Assembly: GCA_016927565.1 (NCBI GenBank)
Contig: JAFGMK010000013.1
Location: 8,796 to 72,795, forward strand
Length of the DNA: 64,000 bases
Reading direction: 5' to 3'
Source of the DNA: Minisyncoccota bacterium
GTDB taxonomy: Bacteria; Patescibacteriota; Microgenomatia; PFEM01; JAFGMK01
Shown here: positions 4,801 through 52,186 of the stretch, piece by piece
How the letters are laid out: each line of letters opens with the position of its first letter
Position numbering within the stretch: position 1 is the stretch's first letter
Notes under the pieces: model-generated
Told to the model about the DNA's origin: nothing
Databases searched by the model: none
The model's input: the letters and a program-made list of their open reading frames with translations, nothing else
Made by a program: the position numbers and the translations under genes

Positions 4801-6033
4801 TTAGCGCATCATCATTCTCCCGCTGCCCCCGCCAGCGGCGGGGCCAAACGGCAAGACGCCATTGCTCCTGTTTTGAGCGGATTGATTGGGGACGGAAATT
4901 GTACCGGTAATTACCACTTCGCCTTCACTCAGACCGGAAATAATTTCGGTTTCGATGTCGCTGGAAATGCCGACCTCAACAGTCTGGTTTGTCTTCTGAC
5001 CGTCTTTTAAAATTACCACTGCTGCGGTTTCTCCTTGATAATTGATAGCGGTTGAAGGAACGATTAAAATATCGCTTTTTGTTTGGACAATGATACTGGC
5101 GGTTGCCGCCATGTTGGGTAATATTTGGCCGGTGCTGGTATCGAATTGAATGATGACCGGATAATTAGTGACATTGCTGGTGATTGTTCCCACCCGGTCG
5201 ACACTGACAACTTTGCCGGTAAAAGTTTTGCCGCTGACTGAGTCAAGAGTGATAGTGGTTTTTTGCCCGGGTTTAATTTGAGAAACATCAATTTCCGAAA
5301 CATTAAAAGTGGCGATTGGCAGGCCGCCGGTACTGATTGTGGCTACTCTTTGATTTGCCCGGGCGCCGCTGGCGGTTTCGCTGGCGCCGATATTCATTCC
5401 TTCGGCAATAGTAACGCTTTTGACGATCCCGGCAACGGGAGAGGTAATGACCGGAGCGGTGGTTTTATAAGCCAGAGCTGTTGAGTTTAATTTGGCCTCG
5501 GCATTTTTAATAGCGTCGTAAGCGTTATCGTGGGCGACTTCGGCCCGGGTGCGTTGTTCTTTCATTTCCAGGGTTTCATCGCTGTCATGGCCTTTGATTT
5601 CATCATAAACAACTTCGAGCGAAGCCCTGGCCGAGCGATAGTTATTATTAGCCGAGTTAAGCGAGTTTTGAGCGCTAAGATAATTGGAATAGGCCGAAGC
5701 GTAATTCTGTTTACCCTGAACGTCAAGATTAATTTCAACTAACTTTTGACCGGCGGAAACTTCATCGCCGTCACTGACATAAACCCGGCTGACGGTGCCG
5801 CTGGCTTGAGTAGTGATGTTTTCAATGTTTGAGGAAATGATTTTACCGGAAGCCGTAATCGAAGAAACAATCGTTCCGCGTTTTGCCGTTGCGGTTTGAT
5901 TGATTATCTGGGGCTTGTCATTTTTTGACCTCTGTCGGAAAAAAATAACTCCGGCAAGAACGACAATAATGGCCAGAAAAATCCGGGTCTTTGACTTGAA
6001 ATTTTTTTTGAGTGGATTAAGAATCTTTTTCAT
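4801..6033 (-). CDS. efflux periplasmic adaptor subunit (HlyD/MacA family)
   Basis: N-terminal TM, a coiled-coil-rich middle and a beta-barrel-like C-terminus. First gene of the ABC efflux operon. Confidence 0.75.
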   Translation of the reverse strand: MKKILNPLKKNFKSKTRIFLAIIVVLAGVIFFRQRSKNDKPQIINQTATAKRGTIVSSITASGKIISSNIENITTQASGTVSRVYVSDGDEVSAGQKLVEINLDVQGKQNYASAYSNYLSAQNSLNSANNNYRSARASLEVVYDEIKGHDSDETLEMKEQRTRAEVAHDNAYDAIKNAEAKLNSTALAYKTTAPVITSPVAGIVKSVTIAEGMNIGASETASGARANQRVATISTGGLPIATFNVSEIDVSQIKPGQKTTITLDSVSGKTFTGKVVSVDRVGTITSNVTNYPVIIQFDTSTGQILPNMAATASIIVQTKSDILIVPSTAINYQGETAAVVILKDGQKTNQTVEVGISSDIETEIISGLSEGEVVITGTISVPNQSAQNRSNGVLPFGPAAGGGSGRMMMR

Positions 6034-7644: not shown

Positions 7645-7687
7645 AAGACAAGTTATAATGGGCATTAGTTTATGAAAAAAGACAGTC
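7645..7687 (+). repeat. copy 1 of a duplicated ~43-bp promoter/leader repeat (AAGAyAAGTTATAATGGGCATTAGTTTATGAAAAAA...)
   Basis: About 40/43 identical to 10097-10139. Contains a TATAAT -10 box 13 bp before an ATG. Here the ATG opens only a 32-codon ORF ahead of the CYTH gene. Confidence 0.7.
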
Positions 7688-10096: not shown

Positions 10097-10139
10097 AAGA
10101 TAAGTTATAATGGGCATTAGTTTATGAAAAAAACAATCA
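10097..10139 (+). repeat. copy 2 of the duplicated promoter/leader repeat; supplies the -10 box and the ATG of the methyltransferase gene
   Basis: Same sequence as 7645-7687. The ATG at 10124 begins the 272-aa ORF. Confidence 0.7.
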
Positions 10140-15728: not shown

Positions 15729-15771
15729 AAATTTTTTTGATTTGAGACTGTTGAATAAAAATTTTTTCCCC

Positions 15772-15846
15772 GTCATTCTGAACAAAGCGAAAGATTCCCC
15801 TCGGCAGAGATTATTACCCCCCCCGCCTTTGGCGGGTCAGAATGAC
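15772..15846. promoter_or_regulatory. nested inverted repeats (gtcattctg ... cagaatgac enclosing cccgcc-ttt-ggcggg) in the ychF-rpsF spacer
   Basis: Seen directly in the sequence. An outer 9-bp inverted repeat is separated by 57 nt, with an inner 6-bp tight hairpin. Confidence 0.35.
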
Positions 15847-22773: not shown

Positions 22774-22878
22774 TTGGCTTTAAAACGAAGCGGGATTTGT
22801 TGGACATCTTTGCCTTCACTTTGTTGATTTAAATTATTGAAATGGAAAGCAGTTCTTGTTTTTTTGCTGAAATTCGTT

Positions 22879-23325
22879 TTAACCGAAGGGAGCTTGGGCT
22901 GCTTTTCTGGCAGCTGCTTTGGTCCTAAAGGTTTCTTTCCAGTTTTTGCCTTTGGGTGGAAGGATCCGGCTTAACTGCCAGTCTATCTCAGTCCAAAACT
23001 GTTCACTTTTTTGTTTCTTAATCGCTCTGCCAAGGACCTCCCGGTAACCCTTCCCGGCATGTTTTAACCAAAGGGCGACTTTGCCTATTGTCGCTGAGCT
23101 AACCTTTAGAGTTTCGTTGATTGATTGGTAATCGTAGCCTTTCAAAAGCATGAGAGCAATGGCGACTCTTTTTCCCAGCATGATCTTTTCGGTGGGGCTC
23201 AACAAGTCTTTGAAAAAAAATTTAACTTCTTCTTTGCCGCGCAGGTCATCAATTACATCCGAAAAGAGCTTAAAAACCTGTTTTTCTACTTTCTTTTCTA
23301 AGGGATGTCGGGAAACTTGGGACAT
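22879..23325 (-). CDS. TrpR-like (YerC/YecD family) HTH protein, longer paralog
   Basis: FFFKDLLSPTEKIMLGKRVAIALMLLKGYDYQSINETLKVSSATIGKV...GKGYREVL parallels the 97-aa YerC-like protein at 29983-30276. Confidence 0.55.
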   Translation of the reverse strand: MSQVSRHPLEKKVEKQVFKLFSDVIDDLRGKEEVKFFFKDLLSPTEKIMLGKRVAIALMLLKGYDYQSINETLKVSSATIGKVALWLKHAGKGYREVLGRAIKKQKSEQFWTEIDWQLSRILPPKGKNWKETFRTKAAARKAAQAPFG

Positions 23326-23342: not shown

Positions 23343-23372
23343 ATACTTTAATAATTTAAATTATTAAAGTAT
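23343..23372. promoter_or_regulatory. perfect 30-bp palindrome ATACTTTAATAATTTAAATTATTAAAGTAT upstream of the TrpR-like gene, followed by (GGTT)4
   Basis: Seen directly. It ends 18 nt upstream of the start codon and overlaps the promoter/RBS region of the 22879-23325 gene. Confidence 0.5.
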
Positions 23373-29603: not shown

Positions 29604-29690
29604 ACCACCCCGCCGGTGGCGGGGATCGTCTTTAATAAATTAAACTGATAAAAAAATATCAGCTACACCCGCCGGAAAGCGGGGAGTGGT
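29604..29690. repeat. pair of related GC hairpins (ccccgccggtggcgggg and cccgccggaaagcgggg) flanking an AT palindrome ctgataaaaaaatatcag
   Basis: Seen directly in the 450-bp spacer between the YerC-like gene and the PLP-enzyme operon. Confidence 0.45.
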
Positions 29691-29982
29691 GAGCTTGATT
29701 ATTTCTGACTTGTTTTGTCTGGCCCATGGTCAACCTCTTTATTGCTGTATATTACTATGGTAGCATGATGTAATCATTATAACATAATTGTCAAATTTTT
29801 GGGCGGGAAAGGGCTGTTGAATAAAAATTCACTCACCGTTACCCTGAGCCAAGCTAAGGATCCTTTTCGGCGGAGACTCTCCCGTTTACAGCTGGCAGAA
29901 AACAGGGTGTCGTATGCAGACATTTTAAAAATATCGATGTTTTTGGGTGCCTTGCGGGAGTGGTTAGACACGATTGGTCTTA

Positions 29983-30276
29983 TTATTTTTTCTGAAGCCT
30001 TTTTAAAACTAGCCGGTAACCGCCGAGGCCATGGTTAAGCCAATGGGCGACTCGGGTAACAGTCGTTGTGGAAACCCGGCATTTTCGGGCGATTTGCAAG
30101 TAAGAGTGTTTTTTTTCGAAAAGTAATTTGGCGATTTGAAAACGAATGGTGAGGTCGTTAATTTCTTTCAAAGTCAGAAGATCGCGGAAAAAATCGGCGG
30201 CTTCTTTTTGGTTCTTAAGTTTTAAAATTGCCAGTAATAATTCGTTGGTTGATTTTTTTGTTTTTTCAGAGGCCAT
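29983..30276 (-). CDS. TrpR-like transcriptional regulator, YerC/YecD family
   Basis: 97 aa with FFRDLLTLKEINDLTIRFQIAKLL...YLQIARKCRVSTTTVTRVAHWL...GGYRLVL, the canonical YerC/YecD pattern. Confidence 0.75.
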   Translation of the reverse strand: MASEKTKKSTNELLLAILKLKNQKEAADFFRDLLTLKEINDLTIRFQIAKLLFEKKHSYLQIARKCRVSTTTVTRVAHWLNHGLGGYRLVLKRLQKK

Positions 30277-30361
30277 CTTTTAAACTTTAAATTGATTTAA
30301 TTGAAACTAACACGGATTTTGGCTGACTGTCAACTTGGAGGGGATGGCTTCCTTTTAATAT

Positions 30362-30395
30362 TCTTGATATCATGATTCATATCATGGTATCAAGA
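30362..30395. promoter_or_regulatory. 34-bp near-palindrome TCTTGATATCATGAT-TCAT-ATCATGGTATCAAGA upstream of the YerC-like gene; candidate operator
   Basis: 15-bp inverted arms with one mismatch and a 4-bp spacer. It matches the site at 51306-51339 at 31 of 34 positions. Confidence 0.6.
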
Positions 30396-43220: not shown

Positions 43221-44177
43221 ATGAAAAGAAATTTGAGTCTGAATCAATTAATTGAAGAGTTTTTAGAAGGCCTGGAAATCGAAAAGAACTGTTCTCCTTT
43301 GACGATTCGCAACTATCATCACTATCTGAACCGATTTGCCGGCTGGTTTACCCAAAATTTTCCCAAAAGTAGCCTGGCAAATCTGGATTTGGATAAAGTT
43401 AGAAAATTCAGGATTCATTTAGCCCGATTTACGGGTCAAAACGGGCAAAAGCTCTCTCTTGTCACTCAATCTTACCATGTGATAGCCTTGCGCTCCTTCT
43501 TAAAGTGGCTTAGAAAGTTTGATTATAAGACGCTGGCCCCGGAAAAGATTGACCTGCCGAAGGTTAAATCCCGGTCGTTGAAGTTCCTTAACACCATTCA
43601 AACGGAGCGGCTGCTGGCTCAGCCGGGTCTGTCGACTCTTCGCGGCCTTCGGGATAAAGCAATTTTGGAAATAATATTTTCTACAGGACTTCGTGTTTCC
43701 GAAACTGCAAAATTGGATCGGAACCAATTGGATTTGGACCGGCGGGAATTCGGAGTAGTAGGTAAGGGTGGTCGGGCAAGGGTTGTTTTTTTATCTCCCC
43801 GGGCGGCTAAATGGGTAGGTCGTTATTTGGAGAAAAGAAAAGATAATTTTAAACCATTGTTTATTGCCCACCGGGAAAAAGAAGATCAGGAAAAAATAGC
43901 GGAGAATCGGTCTGACGAACAAATGAGACTAAGCCCCCGGACAATTCAGCGGCTGGTAAAAAAATATGCCCGAAAAGCCAAGTTGCCGATCGAGGTGACT
44001 CCCCATGTTCTTCGTCACAGTTTTGCGACCGATCTTTTGATGGCTGGAGCTGACCTGCGATCGGTCCAGGAAATGCTGGGTCACAAGAACATTGCTACCA
44101 CTCAGATCTATACTCATGTCACTAACCGCCAGCTAAAAGACGTCCACGCTGCTTTTCATGGCAAGGGAGGTAATTAA
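43221..44177 (+). CDS. site-specific tyrosine recombinase, XerC/XerD family
   Basis: N-terminal SAM-like core-binding domain. Catalytic R...HxxR...Y: LRVSE, HVLRHSFATDLL and IATTQIYTHV. Confidence 0.85.
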   Translation: MKRNLSLNQLIEEFLEGLEIEKNCSPLTIRNYHHYLNRFAGWFTQNFPKSSLANLDLDKVRKFRIHLARFTGQNGQKLSLVTQSYHVIALRSFLKWLRKFDYKTLAPEKIDLPKVKSRSLKFLNTIQTERLLAQPGLSTLRGLRDKAILEIIFSTGLRVSETAKLDRNQLDLDRREFGVVGKGGRARVVFLSPRAAKWVGRYLEKRKDNFKPLFIAHREKEDQEKIAENRSDEQMRLSPRTIQRLVKKYARKAKLPIEVTPHVLRHSFATDLLMAGADLRSVQEMLGHKNIATTQIYTHVTNRQLKDVHAAFHGKGGN

Positions 44178-46029: not shown

Positions 46030-48588
46030 TTAAAGACAAGTTGCAGCTGCAATCCGGTCGTTTGCCTTGCCGAAGCGCATAAGGATTACTCCCTGGGTGT
46101 CGCGGCTGAGAATCGGGATGTTTTTGATCGGTAATTTGATTACCTGAGCTCGGCGGCTGGTGAGGATTAATTGTTTTGAATTTTGGGTAACCAGCTGGGA
46201 AAGGACAACGTTGCCGGTTTTAAGAGTGATATTGGCTACTTTAACACCGACTCCTCCCCTCTTTTGCAAAGGGTATGAGGAAAGCGGACTTCGTTTCCCC
46301 AACCCTTTTTCCGTAACAGTTATAATATCCCGAAAATATTTTCTCCGGCGGTCTTTTGGTTTGACTTGTTTCGAGGGAAAGGTTTCGATTGAAACAACCC
46401 AGTCTTCTTTTTTAAGGTTAATGCCTTTTACTCCGGTAGTGTCTCGACCCATCGGCCTGACATCGGTTTCTCTAAACCGGATCGATTTTCCCTGGTGAGA
46501 AACCATTAAAATTTGATCTTGGCCGGAAGTGGTTTTAACCCAACAGAGTTGATCGTCTTCTTTCAGTTTAATGGCAATTAAGCCCGAAGACCGGATATGA
46601 GCGAATTTGCTGAGGCGGGTTTTTTTAACGATGCCTTTTCTGGTGGCGGTAAGGATGAATTGCTGCTCGGTTTTTTTCGACATCGGCAAGACGGCCATCA
46701 CTCTTTCGTTTTGATCAACGCTGATTAAATTAATCAGCGCGCTGCCTTTAGAAGTTCGGCTTCCTTCATTGATTTCCCAGGCGGGAATGGCAAAAACCCG
46801 GCCCTGATCAGTAAAGAAAAGGATCAAGTCGTGAGTGTTGCTTTTGAGAAGGTGGGCGATTTCGTCTTCTTCTTTTGTTCCCATTCCGACCACTCCTTTG
46901 CCTCCCCTTCTCTGGCTGCGATAGGTATTAACAGGGAGCCTTTTGATATAACCGGTTTTTGTGATTGTTACCAAACAATCCTCCGAAGGCACCAGATCTT
47001 CCTCTTTGAAATTTTTGATATCCTGAGGGAAAACCCTGGTTCTTCTCGGATCGTCATATTCTTTTTTAATTTCGGTTAATTCTTCATCGATGACTTCCAG
47101 GATTTTTTCGGGCTGGGTCAGCAGGATGGCCAAGCGCTCAATCAGTTTTTTTATTGCCTCATATTCGTCCTGGATTTTTTTCTGTTCCAAAGCGGCCAAT
47201 CTTCTGAGTTGCATTTCCAAAATGGCTTCGGCCTGAGCCTGGCTGAGTTTGAATTTTTTCTCCAGATTCTTTCTTGCTGTTTCCGAATTCTGAGATTTTT
47301 TAATTGTTTCTATTACTTCATCCAGATTGTCCAGAGCGATTTTTAAGCCCTCCAGAATATGAGCCCTTTTTTTAGCAACTTGGAATTCATAGAAAGTTCG
47401 GCGGGTAATTACGCGTTGGCGATGGCGGATAAAGTAAGTTAAAATTTGTTTTAAAGATAAGAGCCTGGGAACATCATTGACCAAAGCAACCATATTGGTG
47501 GAGTAAGAAGTTTGCAATTCGGTAAACTTATAAAGTTTATTTAAAACCACTTTCGGTTTGGCGGATTTTTTAAGCTCGACGACAATTCTCATGCCCTTTC
47601 TGTCTGATTCGTCTCTCAAATCGCTGATACCCGAGATTCTTTTGTCTTTAACCAGATCGGCAATTTTGGTAATTAGCTTGGCTTTATTTACTTGATAAGG
47701 GATCTCGGAAACAATGATTTGCAAACGTCCTCTGGCCGTTTCTTCAGTAGCTACTTTGGCCCGGATAATAATTTTTCCTTTACCGGTGGCATAAGCTTTT
47801 TGGATTTCTTCAAGGTTGTAGATTTGACCGCCGGTTGGAAAATCCGGCCCCTGAATATATTGCATTAGATCATCAACGGTGACTTTACTGTCAAAAAGCG
47901 GTATCTTGGGAGGCTTCTTAATCTCCGTTTTTAAAAGATCGATTTTGGAAATTTGAAATCCGCTTCTAGGTTTAGACTGGGCTAAACTGCCTTTTTTCAG
48001 CATGTGCTTCAATCCTCCGACAACCTCAGTCAAGTTGTGAGGCGGAATTTTGGTTGCCATTCCGACTGCAATCCCGTCTGATCCCATCAGGAGAAGATTG
48101 GGAATTTTGGCCGGCAAACAAACCGGCTCTTTGAGAGTGCCGTCAAAATTATCCCGGAAAGAAACAGTTCCTTTGTCCAGGTCCGCCAGCATTTCCCGGG
48201 CGATTTTAGCCATTTTGGCCTCAGTGTAACGCATCGCTGCCGGCGGATCGCCGTCAATTGAGCCGAAATTGCCCTGACCGTCTACCAGAGGGTAGCGCAT
48301 GGAAAAATCTTGGGCCAGCCTGACTAAAGAACCGTAAATCGGGCCGTCGCCGTGAGGATGATATTTGCCCATTGTCTCCCCGACGATTTTGGCCGATTTA
48401 GAATAGTGGCTTTGGTGGACTAGCCCCATTTCCTTCATGGCAAAAAGAATCCGTCGGTGAACCGGCTTCAGACCGTCACGCACATCGGGCAGAGCCCGAG
48501 AGACGATAACGCTCATGGCATAATCGAGATATGATTTTTTCATCTCTTGGGAAATTTCCGTCGAGATGACCTTACCGATATTGGACAT
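46030..48588 (-). CDS. gyrA: DNA gyrase subunit A
   Basis: Active-site Tyr region and C-terminal beta-pinwheel repeats; 852 aa. Confidence 0.95.
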   Translation of the reverse strand: MSNIGKVISTEISQEMKKSYLDYAMSVIVSRALPDVRDGLKPVHRRILFAMKEMGLVHQSHYSKSAKIVGETMGKYHPHGDGPIYGSLVRLAQDFSMRYPLVDGQGNFGSIDGDPPAAMRYTEAKMAKIAREMLADLDKGTVSFRDNFDGTLKEPVCLPAKIPNLLLMGSDGIAVGMATKIPPHNLTEVVGGLKHMLKKGSLAQSKPRSGFQISKIDLLKTEIKKPPKIPLFDSKVTVDDLMQYIQGPDFPTGGQIYNLEEIQKAYATGKGKIIIRAKVATEETARGRLQIIVSEIPYQVNKAKLITKIADLVKDKRISGISDLRDESDRKGMRIVVELKKSAKPKVVLNKLYKFTELQTSYSTNMVALVNDVPRLLSLKQILTYFIRHRQRVITRRTFYEFQVAKKRAHILEGLKIALDNLDEVIETIKKSQNSETARKNLEKKFKLSQAQAEAILEMQLRRLAALEQKKIQDEYEAIKKLIERLAILLTQPEKILEVIDEELTEIKKEYDDPRRTRVFPQDIKNFKEEDLVPSEDCLVTITKTGYIKRLPVNTYRSQRRGGKGVVGMGTKEEDEIAHLLKSNTHDLILFFTDQGRVFAIPAWEINEGSRTSKGSALINLISVDQNERVMAVLPMSKKTEQQFILTATRKGIVKKTRLSKFAHIRSSGLIAIKLKEDDQLCWVKTTSGQDQILMVSHQGKSIRFRETDVRPMGRDTTGVKGINLKKEDWVVSIETFPSKQVKPKDRRRKYFRDIITVTEKGLGKRSPLSSYPLQKRGGVGVKVANITLKTGNVVLSQLVTQNSKQLILTSRRAQVIKLPIKNIPILSRDTQGVILMRFGKANDRIAAATCL

Positions 48589-48623
48589 TGTTAGTTTATC
48601 TAAAGCTGTTGATTTTTCAGTTT

Positions 48624-49112
48624 CTACTTCTGCTTATATCTTTCCTGAGCTTTTAAGACCTCTTTTTCTGCTTTTTCCCGACTACCCCAGCCTTTTAATT
48701 TTACCCATTTGCCTTTTTCCAGGTCTTTGTAGTGTTCAAAAAAGTTTCTAATTTTGTCTTTGGTAATTTGATCAAGTTCTTCTGCCTGTTTGACTTTACC
48801 GAACAAAGGGTCGATTTTAACATCCGGAACGGCGAGGATTTTGGTATCCACTCCTCCTTCGTCTTCCATCTGAAGAAGGCCGACCACCTGGCATTTGATT
48901 AAACAGCCCGGCACCACCGGTTTTGATGACAAAACGACGACATCAATCGGATCGTTGTCTTCGCTGAGAGTTTCTTCGACATAGCCGTAATTAAAAGGGA
49001 AATACATAGCTCCGTGCAGAAAGCGGTCAACTCTGATCCGGCCTTTTTCTTTATCAAATTCATACTTAACCAACCCCCCTTTGGGAATTTCGATTAAAAC
49101 GTCAAGACTCAT
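48624..49112 (-). CDS. ppa: inorganic pyrophosphatase (family I)
   Basis: IEIPKGG...KYE and DPIDVVVL motifs. Confidence 0.9.
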   Translation of the reverse strand: MSLDVLIEIPKGGLVKYEFDKEKGRIRVDRFLHGAMYFPFNYGYVEETLSEDNDPIDVVVLSSKPVVPGCLIKCQVVGLLQMEDEGGVDTKILAVPDVKIDPLFGKVKQAEELDQITKDKIRNFFEHYKDLEKGKWVKLKGWGSREKAEKEVLKAQERYKQK

Positions 49113-49140
49113 CTGGCCTCCTTTTTTTCAAAAAAATAAA

Positions 49141-51135
<1,995 letters not shown>

Positions 51136-51305
51136 TTATTGAAGCAAGAGAGATTCTATTGCAATTCATTATAACCAGTTGTTTTTTGAGTTTCAAGAGG
51201 TGAAAGGTTCAGGGGTTGTTTTTCTTTATCGGTAAAATTCCTTTGGGCAAATCTTTTCCTCTCAAGGAGAAAATCCGGGGCCATTTACCCGAACGGGCAG
51301 TTTTC

Positions 51306-51339
51306 TCTTGATACCATGATTCGAATCATGGTATCAAGA
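51306..51339. promoter_or_regulatory. perfect 34-bp palindrome TCTTGATACCATGAT-TCGA-ATCATGGTATCAAGA about 200 bp upstream of gyrB; second copy of the candidate YerC-type operator
   Basis: Perfect 15-bp arms and a palindromic spacer. Matches the site at 30362-30395 at 31 of 34 positions. Confidence 0.6.
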
Positions 51340-51370: not shown

Positions 51371-52186
51371 TTACCTCCTCCCTATCCCTTTACCCCCCTT
51401 ATCCATCGGTAAAACTTCTTTATCGGCAAGATTCCTTTTGCGGGAGGTGATTTGAGGATAGCGGAGGAAAAGATTATCGATGACTAGACGGTGATTGACA
51501 TTTTTATCAATTAATTGATATGCCTTGTTGATTTTTTTGATGAGAATGGCTGTTCGGGAAACTGTCAGGGAAGGAAATAGTTCTTTAAAATCTTTAAACT
51601 TATCCGGATTTTGTTTCTCTTCTAATCCGGCTAAAAGAATTTGCCGCCAGGCATGAAGTTGTCCCAGAATAAATTCGGGTGCTTCTTTTTTATCAACAGC
51701 CAGCTTGGCAGTCAGCTGTAGTTTTTCGCCCGGTGATAAAAACAGAGCCTGGTGGATGATTTTAAGGTTTTCCGACAGTTTATCTGAAAAAAAATCAGTT
51801 GTTTGGCCGGGAGGCAATTTTATTATTTGGACGCGAGAAAGGATAGTAGGCAAAAGAGATTCGGCTTGCCGGGAGGTTAAAATAAGAATCGTGTCGGCGG
51901 GCGGTTCTTCCAGGGTCTTTAAAAGAGCGTTTTGGGCAGGCAGGGTCAGTTTTTCGGCTCCATAAATCAAGCCTGCTTTAAGTTTTAAGGCAAGAGGCTT
52001 ATAGAACAGCTTTTTTTTTAAGTTCCTGATCTGGCTGATTTTAATTGAGTCATCGGACTCGATGATAAAGACATCGGGATTCTGCCTGAAGTTTTTAATT
52101 GGTTTTTTTTGGATTTTTTCGATTATATTTTGAGCTTTGGCAAGCCTGGTCGGCGCGTCGGCTCCGGTAATCAAAAAAGCGTGCAT
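51371..52186 (-). CDS. holB: DNA polymerase III subunit delta'
   Basis: AQNALLKTLEEPP and LPTILSRVQ (SRC-like) motifs with a degenerate P-loop, as is typical for delta'. Confidence 0.7.
   Translation of the reverse strand: MHAFLITGADAPTRLAKAQNIIEKIQKKPIKNFRQNPDVFIIESDDSIKISQIRNLKKKLFYKPLALKLKAGLIYGAEKLTLPAQNALLKTLEEPPADTILILTSRQAESLLPTILSRVQIIKLPPGQTTDFFSDKLSENLKIIHQALFLSPGEKLQLTAKLAVDKKEAPEFILGQLHAWRQILLAGLEEKQNPDKFKDFKELFPSLTVSRTAILIKKINKAYQLIDKNVNHRLVIDNLFLRYPQITSRKRNLADKEVLPMDKGGKGIGRR

Follow-up and report, generated by a model that had tools for sequence, protein, structure and literature searches.

What is a long, almost perfect palindrome doing at two places of one bacterial genome, once upstream of a gene for a TrpR-family regulator and once upstream of the gyrase genes? 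The question is raised by a stretch of 64,000 nucleotides (contig JAFGMK010000013.1 of assembly GCA_016927565.1; hereafter the window) from a metagenome-assembled genome (MAG) of Patescibacteria, labelled Candidatus Pacebacteria by NCBI, in which TCTTGATAYCATGAT-N4-ATCATGGTATCAAGA can be read directly at 30362-30395 and at 51306-51339. A first-pass annotation had taken the two palindromes for operators of a dimeric helix-turn-helix (HTH) protein, encoded by the yerC-like gene next to the first copy, and had proposed a small regulon linking this gene to gyrB-ppa-gyrA. Comparison with other genomes led us to a 30-bp motif of the same kind that stands on both sides of a different TrpR-family gene, coding for about 150 amino acids (aa), in five lineages of Patescibacteria, and we consider it rather probable that the palindromes are operators of a TrpR-family HTH regulator. 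The two copies in the window are as follows.

30362..30395, no strand: site 1, TCTTGATATCATGAT-TCAT-ATCATGGTATCAAGA, with an asymmetric spacer and one arm mismatch (T where C is expected)
30364-30393: 30-bp core of site 1, TTGATATCATGA-TTCATA-TCATGGTATCAA, matching 20/20 motif positions
51306..51339, no strand: site 2, TCTTGATACCATGAT-TCGA-ATCATGGTATCAAGA, a perfect 34-bp palindrome (17+17, no spacer)
51308-51337: 30-bp core of site 2, TTGATACCATGA-TTCGAA-TCATGGTATCAA, matching 20/20 motif positions

Direct reading confirms the description given by the first-pass annotation, namely a perfect second copy and a first copy with one arm change and an altered spacer, as well as its distances: site 1 lies 86-119 nucleotides (nt) upstream of the yerC ATG, and site 2 204 nt upstream of the first gyrB ATG at 51102 (258 nt with the 635-aa start used by NCBI). 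The two sites are identical at 31 of 34 positions, and their dyad-symmetric arms of 15-17 bp are about as long as would be expected for an HTH dimer or for dimers bound in tandem. Shuffled sequence yields nothing comparable. When the window was scanned with the family consensus derived below (20 informative positions, spacer of 5-7), a score of 18 was never reached in 300 first-order Markov shuffles; the window itself holds two strong sites and a single weak one, site 3. The half-site occurs without mismatch nowhere else in the 64 kb, and with up to three mismatches 14 times, against 2.7 expected matches and a count of 14 in none of 100 shuffles. Outside the 34 bp, the compared flanks of sites 1 and 2 share no similarity, and a larger mobile element surrounding the palindromes was discarded on this ground. 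As RNA, the sites are predicted to form hairpins of -15.9 and -25.4 kcal/mol (z-scores -4.1 and -5.3) with an A+T-rich stem; no T-run follows directly on either strand of site 1 or 2, a terminator scan was negative, and Rfam gave no match at either site, at gathering thresholds or at E <= 1. A Logan contig of the same genome, L019, ends at window position 51335, inside the site 2 palindrome, and perfect palindromes such as this one appear to fragment de Bruijn graph assemblies.

To place the element in a wider context, we searched GTDB, with a single genome for each of about 186,000 species, and the JGI metagenomes for the strict pattern TTGATANCATGA-N4-8-TCATGNTATCAA, which returned only 11 loci. 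The matches in genomes of the candidate phyla radiation (CPR) have the half-site in common, as well as a 6-nt gap between TCATGA blocks. A 686-kb contig of Blackburnbacteria carries two exact copies (30/30 identical), one located 7 nt past the stop codon of an ASCH-domain gene in an ASCH/CCA-adding enzyme locus, the other filling the 37-nt gap between two glycosyltransferase genes and ending 6 nt before the second ATG. One copy was found upstream of a diacylglycerol-kinase gene on a Saccharibacteria contig, locus L010 has a core identical to that of site 2, and L009, a metagenome contig, contains three full copies within 8.4 kb. The element is thus rare, low-copy and always intergenic, and is not restricted to yerC or gyrB. 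The dispersed repeat that the first-pass annotation had considered as a way to be wrong is not what the scanned DNA shows: two strong copies and one weak copy in 64 kb, and two in 686 kb, are all intergenic. No exact match to the pattern was present in IMG/VR, nor were relatives of the 97-aa family encoded by the yerC-like gene found in viral contigs, and a phage origin was rejected.

Several matches were set aside. The hit in L002 (Flavobacteriales) and the palindrome TTGATAACATGA-N7/8-TCATGTTATCAA of L006-L008, which is a different one, were treated as unrelated matches to a loose pattern. In L011, a gene for an ArsR-type HTH protein is located immediately upstream, but the palindrome of this locus is another, longer hairpin. 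In L005, from a Peptococcaceae MAG, positions 1179-1229 form a 51-bp palindrome of TGATA(T/G)CA units, in which the motif matches three times, in overlap and at intervals of 11 bp; this Firmicutes genome is of high GC content, and the genes on either side of the palindrome, for a nitroreductase and an SPFH protein, are divergent.

The connection to the TrpR family is made by L009, where the neighbour of the palindrome is a 150-aa TrpR-family gene (tblastx; PF01371). With the half-site TTGATATCATGA, one copy ends 5 nt upstream of the ATG of this gene, a second starts 2 nt after its stop codon and 50 nt upstream of thrS, and the third follows pheT. Homologous loci, at 83%, 79%, 65% and 57% protein identity, have a 30-bp palindrome at both positions in each case. 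In the following, O1 denotes the copy upstream of the 150-aa gene and O2 the copy after its stop, in five Patescibacteria lineages.

L020: TTGATATCATGA-AACGGA-TCATGATATCA(A/T)
L022/L024: (T/C)TGTTATCATGT-AACGGA-ACATGATA(A/G)CAA
L029: TTG(T/C)TATCATGT-...-ACATGATAAC(AA/GT)
L033/L034: T(T/C)GCTATCATGT-AACGGT-ACATGATAGCA(A/T)

The family motif, TTGnTAnCATGw-N6-wCATGnTAnCAA, is a dyad of 30 bp whose centre is in most cases CG; 15 of its 30 columns do not vary between lineages. Symmetric changes affect arm positions 4 (A/T/C) and 12 (A/T), jointly at both sites of one genome. In a set of 14 distinct sites, the dyad is kept by 95.8% of the arm cells and three of the 12 arm positions change on both sides; the observed covariation score was reached by none of 500 shuffles. 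The motif, its conservation, the joint symmetric changes and the positions relative to the genes are all direct observations. Joint changes at separate sites, conservation of the stem beyond what pairing demands, and a position before the start codon favour a DNA-binding protein over an RNA hairpin. As far as can be judged from sequence, the dimeric HTH operator architecture originally proposed fits a dimeric or tetrameric protein, with a link to TrpR-family regulators; because TrpR binds in tandem, the length of 30 bp suggests a dimer of dimers.

O1 and O2 differ in their relation to the promoter. O1 ends 5-8 nt before the ATG, over an extended -10 element in all five lineages, and breaks its symmetry exactly where the -10 element needs a T (TATCAT, TAGCAT, TAACGT). 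O2 is found 2-14 nt past the stop codon and retains CAA. O1 therefore looks like a promoter and operator in one, serving a leaderless mRNA, and O2 like an operator only. The two are spaced by 450-600 bp, and the distance between the end of O2 and the thrS -35 element is 3-4 nt in L020 and L022, and 15-22 nt in L024 and L029. O1, O2 and, in L020, an additional O3 are the only strong sites in the 16-20 kb around each 150-aa gene. The orientation of the spacer is flipped between lineages, and in L033/L034 the palindrome-gene-palindrome unit persists at a place where thrS is no longer the neighbour. Between O2 and thrS, in L020/L022/L024/L029, thrS has a 150-250-nt leader that contains a terminator-like hairpin and the conserved segment gcatgagacgtaac(c/g)aacctcaaagagaagcgc, perhaps a thrS leader of the T-box-like or another type in CPR bacteria.

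In the window, site 1 belongs to a locus with the following features.

29983..30276, minus strand: yerC-like gene, ATG at 30276, for a 97-aa HTH protein of the YerC/YecD type of the TrpR family, a candidate binder
30304..30333, minus strand: predicted yerC promoter, TTGACA-18-(TGt)TAGTTT, between site 1 and the gene
29757..29785, no strand: site 3, a weak candidate, ATGGTAGCATGA-TGTAA-TCATTATAACAT, matching 17/20 motif positions with a 5-nt spacer

The YerC/YecD identity of the 97-aa protein is sound, with 76 bits to TIGR02531 (cutoff 42.2), 80.5 bits to PF01371 and relatives in the PDB at E values of 1e-12 to 1e-17 (3g1c, 3frw and 3kor, the closest chains being those of 3g1c and 3frw). Its recognition helix, VSTTTVTRVAHWL, is nearly invariant in a very widespread family of 893 matches. 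This family is not obscure, as the first-pass annotation had it, because YerC of B. subtilis is HisR, a histidine-dependent repressor with the 20-bp motif cacTTTA-N6-TAAAgtg; binding of the HisR type has been validated in vitro for a protein of R. gnavus, and the motif of TrpR is TGTACTnGTnnACnAGTACA (PMC9413887).

Site 1 begins 56 nt past the stop codon of a co-directional 236-aa gene, a point missing from the first-pass annotation, and is centred at about -81.5 relative to the predicted yerC start site. Site 3 follows the yerC stop at a distance of about 200 nt, and the yerC-like gene is thus flanked by two of the three sites of the window, an arrangement that echoes the O1-gene-O2 layout of the 150-aa family. 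By comparison with shuffles, 0.013 matches of at least 17/20 are expected per window. Site 3 overlaps the extended -10-like elements TGtTATAAT and TGcTACCAT, and downstream of it follow a 22-aa open reading frame (ORF), two terminator-like hairpins, and an operon made up of a 366-aa gene, two aminotransferase genes and hisS. On the minus strand between 29590 and 29800, the ORF (MGQTKQVRNNQAHHSPLSGGCS, 29727..29659), the two hairpins, which are G+C-rich and carry T-runs, and the two -10 elements form a small unit between yerC and the 366-aa gene that looks like an attenuator-type leader of this operon. Nearby, a 63-nt stretch at 29814-29876 is directly repeated with 75% identity at 15748-15810; both copies are intergenic and have no Rfam match.

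In the nearest available relatives, with about 64-70% YerC identity, the helix VSTTTVTRVAHWL and the gene order (Big_6, a gene of 236-261 aa, yerC) are the same. The space upstream of yerC measures only 37-47 bp there and contains a promoter of the form TTGAC(A/T)-18-TAAG(A/T)T, for instance TTGACA-18-TAAGAT in L013 and TTGACT-18-TAAGTT in L018, both of which lack the palindrome.

The surroundings of site 2 comprise the features listed here; the identities of gyrB, ppa and gyrA assigned by the first-pass annotation are correct.

46030..51102, minus strand: gyrB-ppa-gyrA (gyrB 49141..51102, ppa 48624..49112, gyrA 46030..48588)
51371..52186, minus strand: holB-like ORF (DNA polymerase III delta'), PF13177
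51168..51196, minus strand: predicted gyrB promoter, TTGAAA-17-TATAAT, 11/12 positions, starting 110 nt downstream of site 2
51273..51294, minus strand: terminator-like hairpin with T-run, between site 2 and the gyrB promoter
51222..51244, plus strand: left copy of a 23-bp direct repeat flanking site 2, TTCTTTATCGGTAAAATTCCTTT
51416-51438: right copy of this repeat, 21/23 identical to the left one
51399-51421: weaker copy of this repeat

Site 2 begins 31 nt past the stop of the co-directional holB-like ORF, which had also gone unmentioned, and the hairpin that follows is likely the end of the holB transcript. The ORF has about 25 extra C-terminal residues that run through extra DNA beside site 2; its relatives are 238-240 aa long and end in ...YP(x)n. 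The direct repeats bound a segment of about 193 bp that holds site 2 and is absent from the gyrB relatives L026, L027 and L028. These have 78-81% identity and the same holB-gyrB order, with ppa downstream in two of the three, spacers of 110-180 bp and a promoter of the same type (TTGAAA/TTGACA-17-TATAAT). Counted together, three copies of 17-23 nt, (TTCTTT)ATCGG(T/C)AA(A/G)A(T/C)T(T/C)CTTT, surround site 2, and the extra C-terminal part of the holB-like ORF contains two of them; a duplication, an insertion scar or protein binding sites are all possible. The gyrB 5' leader downstream of the promoter contains a hairpin with a U-run (51131-51152, minus strand), also seen in L026 (about 5936-5970) and L028 (about 150-180), which suggests a conserved, attenuator-like leader. 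In L026, a perfect 18-bp palindrome, TGACAGTTGCAACTGTCA, covers the -35 element of the gyrB promoter (5892-5909); its sequence is unrelated to the motif of the window, and the loci examined hold no second copy.

A number of observations weigh against an operator function as outlined above, or against the parts assigned to yerC and gyrB in it. No TrpR-like gene was found within the 6-8 kb examined around the Blackburnbacteria and Saccharibacteria copies, nor beside the palindromes of L010, L011 and L005 within the DNA examined per locus. Site 1 leaves the core promoter of yerC free, ending 28 nt before its -35 element, and site 2 is remote from that of gyrB, with its centre at about -161.5 from the predicted start site. 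Both sites occupy lineage-specific extra DNA, about 128 bp that the yerC relatives lack and about 190 bp at gyrB. Conservation of the motif upstream of the yerC and gyrB orthologues, which the first-pass annotation had named as a check, was not seen: there is no site of at least 16/20 within about 4 kb of yerC in the relatives L013-L018, and none in the gyrB relatives L026-L028. The 97-aa family is widespread and its helix near-invariant, yet few CPR genomes have the strict palindrome, and the helix of the 150-aa subfamily, VSFTTINRVSTAL, differs from that of the 97-aa protein. Finally, the copies within one genome share even their spacers, which copying explains as well as selection, and the invariant motif positions coincide with the extended -10 promoter TGnTAnnnT. 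For yerC autoregulation, the outcome is mixed: the tie of the motif to TrpR-family genes and the flanking of yerC by sites 1 and 3 speak for it, the missing sites in relatives and the promoter left uncovered against it. The proposed gyrase/pyrophosphatase regulon is weakly founded, since site 2 is some 161 nt from the start site and a hairpin intervenes; control of gyrB-ppa-gyrA would depend on one non-conserved, promoter-distal site and is not supported.

If the palindromes are operators, the adjacent 97-aa protein is a conceivable binder, and we propose it tentatively. Because the motif elsewhere is tied to the TrpR subfamily of about 150 aa, the binder may instead be a thrS-linked paralogue of this type encoded outside the 64-kb window, with site 1 reflecting cross-regulation between paralogues, or a coincidence. 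Every conserved instance of the motif found via proteins belongs to the 150-aa subfamily, 97-aa relatives with the same helix lack the motif, and the small number of loci with the strict pattern agrees with the less common of the two groups (65 versus 893 matches); the thrS-infC-rpmI-rplT-pheST cluster lies outside the window, which leaves room for such a paralogue elsewhere in the genome. That sites 1 and 3 flank the 97-aa gene argues against this possibility, as we estimate the chance of adjacency to one of two or three TrpR genes in about 1,000 at roughly 1%, and so does the only long-type paralogue in the window, of 148 aa, whose helix and palindrome are different. On balance, an unseen paralogue of the 150-aa type seems a somewhat less probable binder than the 97-aa protein. 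The 148-aa paralogue itself is an unlikely binder of sites 1 and 2, having its own palindrome on its promoter.

22879..23325, minus strand: 148-aa TrpR-family gene (PF01371), adjoining hisS
23343-23372: palindrome P2, with the halves ATACTTTAATAATTT and AAATTATTAAAGTAT, perfect over 30 bp

In tblastx, the 148-aa protein and that of L009 match over 84 aa with 38% identity. Its helix, SSATIGKV, resembles most the HisR-type helix of 3g1c, STATISRV. P2 overlaps the -10 element of the TTGACA-17-CATACT promoter of this gene; its half-site ACTTTA is that of HisR, and it reads as two TTTA-N6-TAAA boxes offset by 8 bp. Judged by these features, the 148-aa protein probably binds P2 and not the TTGATA motif. 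With this second example, long palindromic self-operators seem to be a habit of the TrpR family here. A weak copy of P2 (21/30 identical) is found just past the stop of the 148-aa gene, at 22816-22845. Another repeat of the window, unrelated to the palindromes, is the 36-nt AAGAYAAGTTATAATGGGCATTAGTTTATGAAAAAA with a TATAAT box and an ATG, present with 97% identity at 7645-7680 and 10097-10132; it is a promoter and gene start duplicated before two genes.

Other explanations dispense with a repressor. The palindromes could be a mobile or copy-pasted element, of the kind of repetitive extragenic palindromes (REP) or miniature inverted-repeat transposable elements, without regulatory role at yerC or gyrB. 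The extra DNA around both sites, the 23-bp direct repeats flanking site 2, and the near-identity of copies within a genome, spacer included (31/34 in the window, 30/30 in Blackburnbacteria, and three copies in L009), would all be expected from such an element, as would the location of many copies 1-8 nt past stop codons in unrelated contexts such as the glycosyltransferase and ASCH/CCA-adding enzyme loci. We nevertheless consider it improbable: likeness between copies does not extend beyond 34 bp, there are no more than two or three copies per 64-686 kb, and orthologous loci retain O1 and O2 in place even where the proteins are only 57% identical. None of the genes examined near the sites resembles a transposase or a REP-associated tyrosine transposase (RAYT), the only recombinase, an XerC/D-like one at 43221..44177, is syntenic in a palindrome-free relative, and viral contigs gave no matches. 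A somewhat less probable alternative is a symmetric pair of extended -10 promoters, bidirectional or leaderless. The invariant TG.TA..AT is the extended -10 consensus on both strands, TTGATA and TATCAA are 18 nt apart, as are -35 and -10 elements, and exactly 6 nt separate the end of the arm from the ATG in O1 of L020, O1 of L033 and the Blackburnbacteria GT2 gene. However, promoters need neither a perfect 30-bp dyad nor a conserved central CG. The inner arm reads TGATA(T/C)CAT, with T at the key position -7, and the outer arm TGnTATCAA, with A at -7, and purely symmetric copies have the A and not the T. Moreover, separate canonical promoters follow sites 1 and 2 and the O2 copies, and one side of most copies faces a gene 3' end.

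As RNA, the palindromes could act as a 3' hairpin that terminates or stabilises the upstream transcript. The predicted folds are indeed stable, and the sites come just past the stops of co-directional genes, but no copy has a U-tract, there is no Rfam match at the sites, the 15 invariant columns go far beyond the needs of base-pairing, and the joint changes link separate sites of one genome. Furthermore, O1 lies upstream of the start codon and would remain largely untranscribed if the mRNA is leaderless, and the mismatch of site 1 becomes a C-A pair on the transcribed strand. In view of these points, an RNA function is very improbable. Hardly credible at all is a recombination site of the lox/dif type (13-8-13) for the XerC/D-like recombinase, which is encoded between the two copies. 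The length of 34 bp and the 13-8-13 reading are reminiscent of loxP and FRT, and the spacer is flipped between lineages; but the recombinase is also syntenic in L026, which has no palindromes, up to three copies are found within 8 kb in L009 beside a conserved gene order, and the sequence does not resemble dif. Site 2, whose spacer is a palindrome as well, has no direction, which likewise argues against recombination. A replication origin or parS-like site was rejected as well, the GC skew being positive throughout the window without a switch and the motif being unlike parS or DnaA boxes.

How does an operator function compare with known systems? E. coli TrpR represents a family of winged-less HTH dimers with autoregulation and tandem dimers on extended palindromes, and the T-R positions of its recognition helix are presumably shared by the 97-aa protein. 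Its motif and the 30-bp motif have no similarity, the sites described here being longer. In contrast to the trp, aroH and trpR operators of E. coli, the best cases flank the regulator gene on both sides, and the sites of the window are located upstream of the core promoters, without overlap. HisR, of the same family as the 97-aa protein, likewise has palindromic operators, frequently a site upstream of its own gene, and small regulons. Its 20-bp operator, however, bears no similarity to the 30-bp motif, and no genes for histidine biosynthesis or transport were identified near sites 1 and 2; only the weak site 3 precedes an operon ending in hisS. Twin-operator systems that work by looping (lac O1-O2/O3, gal OE-OI, deo) also combine one site on the promoter with a distal one, comparable to O1/O2 and sites 1/3. 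Here, the distal O2 follows the stop of the regulator's own gene instead of lying in or upstream of a structural gene, and looping is a proposal. REP sequences and bacterial interspersed mosaic elements are short palindromes past the stops of co-directional genes, too, with near-identical copies per genome. Those copies number in the hundreds, compared with two or three here, where no RAYT gene was seen near the sites; in further distinction, the positions are kept in orthologous loci across genera and are tightly linked to a transcription-factor gene. The known class to which the predicted arrangement belongs is that of transcription-factor operators with autoregulation. For CPR or Patescibacteria, we found no description of TrpR-family operators or regulons in the open-access literature.

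Taken together, the preferred reading of the palindromes as TrpR-family operators suggests the following model. In the Gottesmanbacteria-type genomes with genes of about 150 aa, O1 would cover the regulator's own extended -10 promoter, which is apparently leaderless; occupied there, it would repress transcription of the regulator. O2 would probably serve as an auxiliary operator, acting through a DNA loop or by blocking access to the thrS promoter that follows. In the window, the most likely model is that sites 1 and 3 set how far yerC is expressed, and perhaps also the operon downstream of it, with its leader ORF, aminotransferases and hisS. Site 2 would be a further strong site for the same protein, and any effect on gyrB would be indirect, by looping or by a roadblock at the end of holB. 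The binding of a protein, the paralogue that binds, its effector and the sign of regulation are inferred.

To our knowledge, almost nothing is known about transcriptional control in CPR bacteria, which have few regulators and cannot be grown alone. A conserved, symmetrically changing 30-bp motif that is tied to a TrpR-family gene constitutes a concrete candidate for a regulator-operator pair in these organisms, and both its sequence and its length are unlike those of the TrpR and HisR operators described so far. It is a speculative and on present evidence unlikely extension that we are dealing with an undescribed class of CPR TrpR regulators, whose genes stand between twin 30-bp operators, the first on a leaderless promoter and the second past the stop. 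By way of additional operator copies, they would couple an amino-acid signal to operons for aminoacyl-tRNA synthetases and translation factors (thrS-infC-rpmI-rplT-pheST, and in the window that of hisS) and, in the Pacebacteria genome, to the gyrase operon as well. The gyrase link would be of interest, if true, because an amino-acid signal would then be coupled to DNA topology, and the twin-operator class, if it exists, would be among the first cis-regulatory codes defined for the minimal-genome bacteria of the CPR.

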